Source of the DNA: Nitrososphaeria archaeon
Lineage (GTDB): Archaea > Thermoproteota > Nitrososphaeria > Geothermarchaeales > JDFR-13
NCBI GenBank assembly: GCA_027078545.1
Contig: JALWXN010000004.1
Coordinates: forward strand, 800,001 to 864,000
Length of the DNA: 64,000 bases
Direction: 5' to 3'
Both the position numbers and the translations under genes were made by a program. The notes under the pieces are model-generated. The model did not search any database. It was not told the origin of the DNA and was given only the letters and a program-made list of their open reading frames with translations. This document shows, one piece after another, positions 5-3,042 of this stretch (within the stretch, counting starts at the first letter, position 1; the number at the start of each line of letters is the position of its first letter).

Positions 5-592
5 ATGAGCTTCAACCTCGGTAATGAGTTGGCATCCCTCCCGATCGACGTCCTGATCGCGAGGCCACTCGACGCAGCGGTGAGGGCCCAGGCATTCGCA
101 GCGGAGACCACTGTACGCTTCGTGAAGGAGGTCGGCCTAGATGATAACGGGAATGTAAGGATGACCACTATGAGGTTTAGCTACACCTATGTTACCGACG
201 AGGGTGAAGAGGAGGAGGTTGAGAGGGAGATATCCGTCCCGTTCCTCACGATGGTCCCAATACCCTTCATCAGGATCAGCGAGGTGGATATTGACCTCAG
301 CTTCAGGATAAGGAATATCGTGGTTGACAGTAAAGAGAAGTCACTATCCGTCTCAGCCGGCGCAGAGGCCAACTGGAAGGTCTTCAAAGTATCGGTTAAC
401 GCATCATACTCCTCAAAGAGGACTACCAAGAGCAAGATAGACAGGAGCGCCGAGGTCGATATAAGGGTGAAGGCTGTCCAGGACGAGATGCCGGAGGGGC
501 TGAGGATACTGCTCAACATACTCAACGAGGGTCTACGTGCACAGGAGGTTGGAGCACCTGCTGGCCAAGGAGGAGGTGGCCAGACAGAGTAG
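5..592 (+). CDS. DUF2589 domain-containing protein
   Basis: LPIDVLIARPLDAAVRAQ N-helix, VPFLTMVPIPFIRISEVDIDLSF core and C-terminal AVQDEMPEGLRILLNIL are typical of DUF2589. Confidence 0.8.
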   Translation: MSFNLGNELASLPIDVLIARPLDAAVRAQAFAAETTVRFVKEVGLDDNGNVRMTTMRFSYTYVTDEGEEEEVEREISVPFLTMVPIPFIRISEVDIDLSFRIRNIVVDSKEKSLSVSAGAEANWKVFKVSVNASYSSKRTTKSKIDRSAEVDIRVKAVQDEMPEGLRILLNILNEGLRAQEVGAPAGQGGGGQTE

Positions 593-604
593 GTGTAGAG
601 AAAA

Positions 605-1072
605 GTGGTCCGGGCAGGTGATATGGCCCAGCTCCTAGCAGGGATACTCAGAGCCGTCGTGGAGGCGGATACACAGGCCCGTGAAGCCTTCCTAGAGGAG
701 CTGGGTAGATACTTCACGGAGACGGAGGAGGGGTTGGAACCGATATACCTGACCCTCAGATACTCCACACAATACGTCGACGACGAGGGACGTCTACAGA
801 GGAGGAGGGAGAAGGTTGAGATCCCCCTACTGACACTGGTCAACCCCTCCCACATAGGTGTTGAGAAGGCGGAGATCGAGCTATACATGGACGTCGTGAC
901 CACTAGGGAGGAGCAGGGGGTCCAGAGGCTCTTCACAGTCTTCAGAGCAGCGACAAAGACCAGGTCTGAGAGTGGGATGAGGATTAGGGTCTTGATGACT
1001 AGGAGCGAGGTAGGCGAGGGCCTGGCCAACGTCATATCCACACTCGTCAATAAGGGGGTTGTTGTTGAGTGA
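605..1072 (+). CDS. DUF2589-like protein (second paralog)
   Basis: EIPLLTLVNPSHIGVEKAEIEL aligns with the core of ORF 5..592; C-terminal EGLANVISTL; GTG start after GGTGT. Confidence 0.7.
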   Translation: MVRAGDMAQLLAGILRAVVEADTQAREAFLEELGRYFTETEEGLEPIYLTLRYSTQYVDDEGRLQRRREKVEIPLLTLVNPSHIGVEKAEIELYMDVVTTREEQGVQRLFTVFRAATKTRSESGMRIRVLMTRSEVGEGLANVISTLVNKGVVVE

Positions 1073-1497
1073 GCGGTCCAAAGATACCTAAGAAGCCGGA
1101 GAAGCCGATCAAGCCCTCAAAACCCTCCAAGGACCTGCCCAAGGAGGTTAAGGAGATTGATATCAGGGATGTAGAGGTCAGCGGTGCCGAGCCTAAGGGC
1201 GCTCCACAGTCTACCCCCGAACGTATAGAGGGTATAGACAAGATTGTCAGGAGCATTGCACAGGCACTCAACACAGCCAGGCTTGAGGCCACGAAGACGG
1301 CTACAAAGAAAGTCATTGAGGTGGGTAAGGAAAGGGTTGAGATACAGTCCTTCCTAGACCTTGAGGAGGCCGAGGTGGAGATAGAGATCGGTGTGGAGCA
1401 GCGTGGAGACGTGCTCATGGCCAAGATGGCACCTATGACGGAGGGGCCTAGGGCGAGGCTACGGATGGTGTTTAGGCTTAGGGAGGAGGAGGTCTAG
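1069..1497 (+). CDS. hypothetical protein, degenerate DUF2589-like, Pro/Lys-rich N-terminus
   Basis: GTGA overlap with the previous stop; helix IDKIVRSIAQALNTA plus strand LDLEEAEVEIEIGV resemble the two upstream ORFs. Confidence 0.6.
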   Translation: MSGPKIPKKPEKPIKPSKPSKDLPKEVKEIDIRDVEVSGAEPKGAPQSTPERIEGIDKIVRSIAQALNTARLEATKTATKKVIEVGKERVEIQSFLDLEEAEVEIEIGVEQRGDVLMAKMAPMTEGPRARLRMVFRLREEEV

Positions 1498-1500
1498 GGG

Positions 1501-3042
1501 CTAGGGCTCCTGGATCCTCACCTCGTCAAAGATTAGGGTGCCGCCCTGGAGCGTAAATATTCCGTATAGCCTACCCCTATAGTTGATGAGGAATGACGGG
1601 TTTACCCTCCCAGCCCAGTTCACACGTACCTGTATAGGCTCACTATCGGGTGATACCCTGTACATCTTGATGCCACCAGATACGACTCCACCAGACTCGG
1701 CCCTCTCTATCCATAGGATGTAGAGCCTGTCGCCGACCTCGTAGAAGCTGTACCCTCCGTAATAGGTGGTTACCGGTATGAAGAGGGCGAGGGCTGAGCC
1801 AGTGCCGCCCCAGCCATTCCTCCTCCAAAGCTCCTCACCATCCCTATAGGCCGCTATAAAGGCTTCAGAGACGTAGTATACACCGTCACGGTAGATGGAG
1901 GTTACGTAGCCTACGCTAGCGTTGTCCTCCGTCCTGGTGTACATCCCCTCTATGCTCCATACCTTGGTTAGAGACGTTAGGTCCCACTTCTCGACCTGGT
2001 AGTCCCTCCTATTAAACAGCTCAGTATTAGTCTCGTTGGCCTCGACGAGGAAGTCGTATGAGTAGTAAACATATAGATCATTCCCATCCAGATATGCCGT
2101 TGCATAGGCCAGCCTAAGAGGTGCTGATACGAGCTTGGTTGGCCAGCCCTCAATCATGAATTCGAATGTGTTTAGATCTATCTCCACATACATGATGTAG
2201 ATGTCTCCCCTCCCCTGCTCGGTAACGCTGGACATCACTATGACCGCCCTAACCATATCCTCGCCACGCTCGACATACGCCAACTTCTTAGGATCATTTG
2301 GCCTGAGGCTGTAGAAGAAGTCGGAAGCATCTTGATAAGCCTCGAAGACTACTGAGCCCGTCTCGAGTCCATATACACGTAGGATGATATTCATCTTCTC
2401 ATAGTCGATGTCTAGGGTGAGGTATTTATCGCCGTAGAAGCCTAGGCCTAGACCCCTGATATCCTCTATGGTGTTACGCATAACGACGCCCCTACCGGGC
2501 TCGACAATATAGTAGTAGAGATCGATCTCTCCAAACTCGATGAAGATGAAGGGGAAGGGTAGTGGAAGTGGGAATGGTATTAAAGCCCTCTCCCTAGCGA
2601 CGCCTCCAAACACGTATCGGTTGGAGTAGACCGAGACGAGCTGACCACTTATGGGGTCGGACTCACCCGAGGGAACCTCGAAGATCTTCTCTACAGAGAG
2701 GATCTCACCACTGGAGAGGGACATTGTTATGATATAGTGATCCTTCCGGAGTAGCTGGGTATTATTTTCATCCATGATGGATTTGACGCCATATATGTAG
2801 AGCCTATCCCCATCGCTGAGGATACTTAGTATAGAAGTCAGGTTGAAGGTGAGGGGGCCCTCCTGAACAGCCTCATCACCAGGCTCTCCCCCCTCCTCCC
2901 CCTGAGCCGGGGCTTCTCCACCGTCTCCACCATCACCGCTGAATATACTCCCTATTATGACCAGCCCAAGGAGGAGTATGATGACAATCAGAATGGCTAC
3001 AACTATCTTTCCCACGCCACCCTCCCGCCCAGTCATTTTCAT
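1501..3042 (-). CDS. membrane-anchored surface protein, probable beta-propeller
   Basis: N-terminal hydrophobic helix, acidic Gly-rich linker, beta-rich body with PQQ-like KVWS and GEELWR motifs. Confidence 0.6.
   Translation of the reverse strand: MKMTGREGGVGKIVVAILIVIILLLGLVIIGSIFSGDGGDGGEAPAQGEEGGEPGDEAVQEGPLTFNLTSILSILSDGDRLYIYGVKSIMDENNTQLLRKDHYIITMSLSSGEILSVEKIFEVPSGESDPISGQLVSVYSNRYVFGGVARERALIPFPLPLPFPFIFIEFGEIDLYYYIVEPGRGVVMRNTIEDIRGLGLGFYGDKYLTLDIDYEKMNIILRVYGLETGSVVFEAYQDASDFFYSLRPNDPKKLAYVERGEDMVRAVIVMSSVTEQGRGDIYIMYVEIDLNTFEFMIEGWPTKLVSAPLRLAYATAYLDGNDLYVYYSYDFLVEANETNTELFNRRDYQVEKWDLTSLTKVWSIEGMYTRTEDNASVGYVTSIYRDGVYYVSEAFIAAYRDGEELWRRNGWGGTGSALALFIPVTTYYGGYSFYEVGDRLYILWIERAESGGVVSGGIKMYRVSPDSEPIQVRVNWAGRVNPSFLINYRGRLYGIFTLQGGTLIFDEVRIQEP

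Follow-up and report, generated by a model that had tools for sequence, protein, structure and literature searches.

We propose that the three genes opening the stretch of DNA analysed here, 64,000 nucleotides of a Nitrososphaeria archaeon genome (hereafter the window), encode a beta-barrel pore that resembles Pepco but would be longer, independent of a protease and built from several kinds of subunit, made in the cytoplasm and kept latent, or else nucleated, by paralogues that lack the membrane tip. We give this reading an even chance of being correct. The family concerned, DUF2589, is already catalogued and, in the literature searched, functionally unstudied: we found no functional experiment on it, its mentions being confined to expression tables. 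The barrel geometry behind the mechanism is reasonably supported. More tentatively, at a probability that we place short of even, DUF2589 cassettes as a whole may represent an undescribed class of multi-component, signal-less beta-barrel pores, distantly related to Pepco, in which tip-less paralogues and not a protease control a long-stemmed subunit, in archaeal ether-lipid membranes as well as in bacterial ones.

DUF2589 has thousands of members, in 3,209 clusters at 50% identity, and the hosts of cassettes like this one belong to 19 phyla. Were the assembly a pore, archaea would gain one of their very few candidates for a beta-barrel pore former, and it would extend the Pepco class to a long-stemmed, multi-subunit form under the control of truncated paralogues. 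What this locus newly contributes is a minimal, cargo-free archaeal form of the cassette and an argument from the four-residue parity of its hairpin lengths.

Locus and gene organisation

The window begins with three co-directional, closely packed open reading frames (Table 1), and both this arrangement and the motifs quoted from it in an earlier, sequence-only reading are present. ORF1 and ORF2 match DUF2589 (Pfam PF11655) at E 1.6e-30 with 106.9 bits and at E 5.5e-12 with 46.7 bits, respectively, both above the gathering cut-off of 23 bits. The GTG start of ORF2 is the choice of gene callers in relatives (an alternative ATG lies at 623), and ORF3 is likewise a called gene, with a 62% identical relative. 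All three genes are real, and comparison with relatives places each under purifying selection, with dN/dS of 0.08-0.25 for ORF1, 0.05-0.10 for ORF2 and 0.08-0.26 for ORF3. The nearest named locus, syntenic and 92% identical, is that of a Candidatus Geothermarchaeota archaeon.

Table 1. Genes of the cassette and parts of their products, in window coordinates
Feature	Position	Strand	Description
ORF1, subunit A	5..592	+	195 aa; first gene; full DUF2589 protein with long amphipathic hairpin
A, N-terminal helix	44..136	+	Residues 14-44; AF2 pLDDT 84-95; packs on hydrophobic face of hairpin base
A, short first hairpin	161..241	+	Residues 53-79 (AF2); length varies widely among homologues, which accept inserted domains
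A, long antiparallel hairpin	272..478	+	Residues 90-158 (covariation); polar Ser/Thr/Lys-rich stem, charged inner face
A, amphipathic tip	341..412	+	Residues 113-136; about 11 residues per arm, turn W124-K125, aromatics at both ends; predicted membrane-spanning part
A, C-terminal helix	494..538	+	Follows a nearly invariant Q-D-x-x-P-x-G motif
ORF2, subunit A'	605..1072	+	155 aa from GTG; DUF2589 paralogue
ORF3, probable subunit B	1069..1497	+	142 aa; 4-base overlap with ORF2
ORF3, N-terminal tail	1069..1218	+	20% Pro, 38% charged; probably disordered

The upstream neighbour, outside the window, is a divergent ornithine carbamoyltransferase (OTCase) gene. A TATA-like box, conserved in five relatives, lies about 27 bases 5' of the ORF1 ATG and just outside the window; the call is based on alignment and spacing, sigma-70 promoter scans being unsuited to archaea. 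Judged from known archaeal promoter spacing, ORF1 probably heads a leaderless transcript. Downstream, a convergent gene for a 513-aa protein (1501-3042, minus strand) is separated from the cassette by 3 bases. Because the cassette is bounded by the divergent OTCase gene and the conserved TATA-like box on one side and by the convergent gene on the other, the operon is complete at three genes, and the suggestion that it might continue upstream no longer holds.

The surroundings hold further features that we record for their own sake. The 513-aa protein is membrane-anchored: its N-terminus has a single hydrophobic helix, and the rest comprises an acidic Gly/Glu linker and a body rich in beta structure. 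It has no Pfam or PHROG match; its gene is syntenic in the closest relatives only, and same-genus genomes that are free of the cassette carry only 30% identical homologues, located elsewhere. Just upstream of the window, beyond the OTCase gene (L001:8092-13920), lie an antitoxin-like and PIN-domain pair, an AbrB/MazE-type gene and a resolvase (PF00239), and the order resolvase-OTCase-cassette is common to four loci (L001, L005, L151 and L153). A genome of the same genus (G375, L246:2934-8583) is without the cassette upstream of OTCase, which is preceded there by a co-directional gene for a 702-aa putative surface protein. The region upstream of OTCase is a variable site. The cassette is rare in this neighbourhood of the tree: among 301 genomes from the phylum, and among 17 from the order, incomplete bins included, two have it in each case; we name no donor, since our quick tree carries long-branch warnings on the window's own branch.

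The long hairpin of subunit A

The AF2 monomer model of A (146 sequences, mean pLDDT 74.9) consists of a helix (residues 14-44), a short hairpin (53-79), two base strands (90-109 and 140-158) and a closing helix (164-178). It renders the base confidently and leaves residues 109-141 without resolved structure, with low confidence at the tip; a shallower model from 36 sequences reached a pLDDT of 52.6. In a mean-field covariation analysis of 384 sequences (effective number about 196), the pairs 93-156, 95-154, 97-152, 112-137, 117-132 and 119-130 all lie on i+j=249, and therefore describe a single hairpin with some 35 residues in each arm, turning at W124-K125. Between residues 90 and 160 this register has a mean z of 2.1, and registers outside 247-251 all stay below 0.6. 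The base gives another signal, at 251, which may come from diagonal contacts or from the register of a neighbouring subunit, two sources that look alike in these data. Pairs linking the N-terminal helix to the base (I18-V155, A25-V94, L17-F100 and I14-A149) fall on one face of it.

The lengths of this hairpin are constrained in a telling way. In 82% of weighted sequences it spans 73, 77, 81 or 85 residues (1 mod 4) from P87 to D160, while the lengths of the first hairpin fall evenly into the mod-4 classes, with no periodicity. Steps of four amount to two residues per arm, and hence the in/out parity of the strands is kept. In all eight length classes the tip has a hydrophobic fraction of 0.64-0.79 on the face packed by the helix and of 0.03-0.12 on the other, and minority classes with a longer turn keep the same face parity. 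Opposite the helix, polar or charged residues line the face over almost all of its length. Across the classes only the polar stem changes length, the hydrophobic belt keeping its aromatic ends and some 11 residues in each arm, which is the span of a bilayer. The alternation itself was correctly read from the sequence as peculiar to ORF1: it holds at 21 of 22 positions, a score matched by 1 of 300 shuffles and by none of 350 sampled ORFs of this genome (ORF2 scores 17, and ORF3 19 from its base strands, there being no tip).

Such face parity is needed by a continuous barrel or sheet, unlike a free loop. As read from its sequence, A has the bilayer-length amphipathic hairpin with aromatic ends that serves as the criterion for a beta pore former, and its predicted geometry is what one would expect of an oligomeric beta-barrel whose tip crosses the membrane. 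The parity itself speaks for a continuous sheet or barrel and not for contact with lipid, and burial of the tip within another subunit would be an alternative. The pore or barrel proposed in the sequence-only reading is to this extent strengthened, by covariation, length periodicity and face parity in the 384 homologues. A four-copy complex prediction of A scored 0.01 and gave no model, four being fewer copies than a barrel would need.

The same hairpin weighs against a soluble heterotrimeric enzyme or regulator in which it is simply buried, a reading that we consider highly improbable. Three small, co-inherited cytoplasmic proteins would suit it, as would the metabolic regulation seen in Archaeoglobus fulgidus, where the DUF2589-related cluster AF0414-AF0417 is up-regulated in ordinary growth on lactate (PMC3949148). 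However, the invariant residues of A are Pro and Gly with no catalytic set, and a hairpin of such length and four-residue periodicity is too long to bury in so small a domain. Expression of the A. fulgidus cluster on lactate implies that it needs no virus; it fits a latent complex, and also a non-toxic structural role.

Searches for known folds added little. Foldseek against the PDB with both models returned nothing above background, as did the VIA fold search (best Z 4.8 in the wide search and 3.7 on a second look). Recurrent low-scoring fold rows were gp25-like baseplate proteins, FPM13 and FliF RBM3, which have a small helix-plus-two-strand motif in common. The Atlas fold search returned DUF2589 only, the Atlas feature search for ORF1 excluding DUF2589 gave no usable match, and the PDB sequence search with ORF1-3 nothing meaningful. 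The aerolysin / ETX-MTX2, MACPF and gasdermin families gave no Pfam or PDB sequence match and do not appear among the fold-search rows, an absence compatible with their being relatives. Two predicted viral structures in BFVD match the model of A (A0A516MP19, E 3.7e-11; A0A516L4Y6, E 1.5e-3).

None of the three proteins has a signal peptide evident by inspection, in agreement with the sequence-only reading, and a hydrophobic N-terminal extension occurs in only 2 of 304 A homologues. C-terminal extensions of at least 50 residues are present in 35 of the 304, and 11 of these 35, when scanned, match Big_1 Ig-like domains. Homologues with such C-terminal Ig-like (Big_1, invasin) domains, among them P0055, P0077, P0116 and P0160, are without signal peptide. 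Other homologues (P0101 at L145:8001-9182, P0047 and P0188) have Gly/Ser/Asn-rich repeats inserted in the first hairpin, and the P0101 insert matches PHROG virion structural and head-closure families. To judge from the Ig-like domains of certain bacterial A proteins, the collar end, which the helices would form, may be displayed extracellularly, as would suit an outward-acting pore and an extracellular polymer alike.

A might build a tube, filament or cage away from any membrane, with rings stacking, tips docking into the next ring, A' and B as end caps, and the whole released by lysis and decorated for adhesion. Filament operons usually encode distinct cap-like paralogues, and the extensions and virion-like inserts just described would suit this reading as well. 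Against it, a belt that stays constant, with aromatic ends, while only the polar stem varies, fits bilayer thickness; there is no evident export signal, and the archaeal A bears no appended domain. We consider a polymer of this kind unlikely.

Tip-less partners and the recurrent cassette

The sequence-only reading described three paralogs, progressively more degenerate. For ORF1 and ORF2 the kinship is secure, their direct alignment giving 25% identity over 167 columns (E 3e-8) in addition to the DUF2589 matches. A' retains the helix, the first hairpin, both base strands and the C-helix, with about 20 residues fewer between the base strands; this connection is non-amphipathic and the tip is absent (the A' alignment is too shallow for covariation). 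For ORF3 the claim was too strong. It matches no Pfam model at E<=1, DUF2589 included, and aligns directly with neither ORF1 nor ORF2 at a significant score; what ties it to the family is a chain of profiles. Against archaeal B proteins ORF3 reaches an HH score of 24.7 (60 column shuffles gave at most 18.0) with E 0.002 and a probability of only 13%. Archaeal B in turn leads to bacterial B at 98%, and bacterial B to DUF2589 at 73-86% (E 5e-6 to 3e-5). ORF3 and archaeoglobal B occupy the same gene position and have a similar charged N-terminal tail, beyond which ORF3 is reduced to a minimal helix and base strands, without tip or C-helix. Covariation in the B family mirrors that in A, linking the helix to the last strand and the first base strand to the last strand; the connection between B's strands is short in archaea and holds a helical insert in bacteria. 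A language-model search, to be read as a lead only, placed ORF3 near clusters carrying Trypco2 (0.85) and DUF2589 (0.78), and the newer Pfam entry PF27375 (AF_0414) matches one B gene faintly. On this chain, weak as it is, ORF3 is probably a highly diverged B subunit.

Nor does degeneration describe these genes. A and B together with A' or a helical protein C recur at about 100 loci, patchily distributed among archaea and many bacterial phyla. Because ORF2 and ORF3 each have a conserved subfamily of their own, recur in this cassette and are under purifying selection, we regard them as specialised subunits and not as decaying copies. Of 104 loci with enough flank, 65 have the order A-B-C, 17 A-A'-B, 15 A-B-A' and 7 a variant. 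By profile call, A and B occur together in 103 of these 104, the third gene nearly always being A' or C, and their sequence distances correlate at 0.92; A-B inter-protein covariation does not rise above shuffled pairing at the low depth available. Such strict co-inheritance makes a hetero-complex of A, A' and B plausible. A-A'-B is mainly the archaeal form, and ORF1-3 follow the order of the archaeoglobal loci. The form most frequent in bacteria has C as its third gene, a protein that is unrelated to DUF2589 and replaces A'. The C family (for example L049:9351-9956) is conserved, apparently all-helical, 190 aa long and without Pfam match, and is nearly mutually exclusive with A'.

Little else travels with the cassette. 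Flanking genes are oriented almost at random, 39 of 73 downstream and 44 of 76 upstream lying on the same strand, and among 129 flanking genes no family recurs apart from papain-like peptidases (4 of 129); in this set there is no recurrence of trypsin or caspase families and no linked sensor, protease or recognisable trigger gene. A role in a conflict system had been suggested, but the cassette flanks show no enrichment of defence genes. In PADLOC 2.0, ORF1-3 and the A and B homologues have no match at E<=1, and C matches at E 0.011 only; NCBIfam and PHROGs gave nothing meaningful for ORF1-3. A link to R-bodies (Reb) was dropped, no such family being recurrent among the neighbour clusters. Some clades have companions of their own. 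In alphaproteobacteria, the genes after A-B-A' encode a small zinc-ribbon-like protein and one of 350 aa without annotation (L054:10366-11699, also L038, L060, L062, L065 and L073), and in an actinobacterial and acidobacterial clade a conserved 150-aa gene of no assigned family lies directly 5' of A (L019:7515-7976, also L020, L025 and L033). In the single case of Ca. Pyrohabitans, a CetZ tubulin gene lies two genes 3' of the cassette (L059:9926-11071).

The neighbours also bear on whether the cassette might form a holin-like or translocon-like channel that passes signal-less enzymes, such as wall hydrolases or proteases, through the cytoplasmic membrane. Two viral contigs (L149:7959-12708 and L150) carry A-B-A' and, after it, lipoprotein-like genes together with one for a PG-binding muramidase; in some bacteria the cassette adjoins genes for papain-like peptidases or an amidase, and protein-conducting toxin stems follow the plan of a long single-hairpin barrel. 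Yet muramidase, amidase or papain relatives are found in at least 12 of 173 loci (a lower bound, the queries being single sequences), none of them archaeal, and the near-random orientation of the flanks also speaks against this reading. This locus has its own promoter, a convergent gene at its end and no linked wall hydrolase, cargo or protease gene; with A in the shortest main hairpin class and free of appended domains, it is the minimal unit, and this argues against wall-hydrolase export as the core function. We would be surprised if export were the answer.

Proposed mechanism and known systems

In the pore mechanism that we prefer, several A subunits would pair edge to edge into a ring, and their hairpins would close into a barrel about 100 angstroms long with a polar lumen, the helices forming a collar and the tip inserting into the membrane. 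A' and B, on a weaker footing, may bind A through the shared base and cap free strand edges; they are more plausible as base caps, since a tip-less subunit within a closed transmembrane barrel would leave a gap. Together the three could constitute a latent complex, or A' and B a nucleating and terminating cap, in the role of the tail that a protease removes from Pepco. An arrangement of two edge caps would not be universal, because the commonest bacterial third gene encodes an unrelated helical protein. The pore would be made in the cytoplasm, given that no signal peptide is evident and that the hosts include archaea and monoderm bacteria, hosts in which it could not be an outer-membrane barrel. 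It might act on the membrane of its producer, bringing death or release, or, once released, on another cell. The patchy spread and the Ig-like appendages lead us to favour cell-cell or cell-virus conflict over housekeeping.

Several known systems invite comparison. The ring-building motifs of FliF RBM3 and SpoIIIAG have the same succession of helix, strand, long hairpin, strand and helix, and there the hairpins of many subunits close a barrel, as those of A would; those proteins are, however, membrane-anchored and exported, their collars are not described as lipid-inserted, and their structural scores against A are at background level. The aerolysin / epsilon-toxin family and the B components of binary toxins are long-stem beta pore formers. 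At the level of design, A shares with them an amphipathic hairpin set between Ser/Thr-rich polar strands that would extend the barrel outside the membrane; as a further likeness, some A homologues bear C-terminal beta-sandwich domains. In contrast to these toxins, A would have a helical collar in place of an all-beta body, lacks a secretion signal, is far smaller and has no sequence match to them. The AF0414-AF0417 cluster and other archaeoglobal DUF2589 clusters are closer: ORF1 and ORF2 belong to the same family and the A-A'-B order is shared, whereas ORF3 is far more diverged than their B and has no Pfam match.

Resemblance to Trypco and Pepco, suggested in the sequence-only reading, proved to be a real but weak lead. 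The Trypco2 Pfam match falls below its cut-off (12.1 bits against 24.2, E 0.25), and a profile-profile comparison of A with Trypco2 gives E 0.011 across the same strand-and-turn motif, while Trypco1 against Trypco2 gives E 0.007; common ancestry of A and Trypco is possible. The defining feature of Trypco is an adjacent protease partner (PMC7159879), trypsin- or caspase-like and fused to a sensor; it is absent here, the neighbours being the OTCase gene and that of the 513-aa protein. Membership (PF19493, PF19631) consequently fails on both counts, sub-threshold models and missing protease neighbour. A true antiviral effector of this type, whose sensor-protease is encoded elsewhere and cuts a tail, is in our view quite improbable. 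Besides the weak Trypco matches, the Pro- and charge-rich tail of ORF3 could speak for it, resembling in composition the tail of Pepco, with 20% Pro and 40% charged residues (PMC12642450). That tail of ORF3 is nevertheless N-terminal and sits on a tip-less subunit, most loci, like this one, are without an adjacent protease, there is no PADLOC match, and searches of this genome found no Trypco1, no caspase-family match and a single trypsin-like gene, unlinked to the cassette.

Among known systems, the cassette nonetheless most likely acts most like Pepco, by analogy with a protein of which 9 to 10 copies have been shown to assemble into a beta-barrel pore whose lumen is charged and whose base carries amphipathic helices (PMC12642450). 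Barrels of the Pepco and Trypco class are 9- to 11-mers that resist denaturation and are activated by cleavage at the C-terminus. With Pepco, Trypco1 and Trypco2 it shares the want of a signal peptide, a basal helix on the single hairpin of each subunit and a polar inner and hydrophobic outer face, and near the first base strand and the tip its profile weakly resembles that of Trypco. It differs in a longer A hairpin (aligning it with Trypco2 opens a gap of 12 residues in the first arm), in an extra first hairpin and C-helix, and in that its three subunits are encoded together, with no linked protease or sensor.
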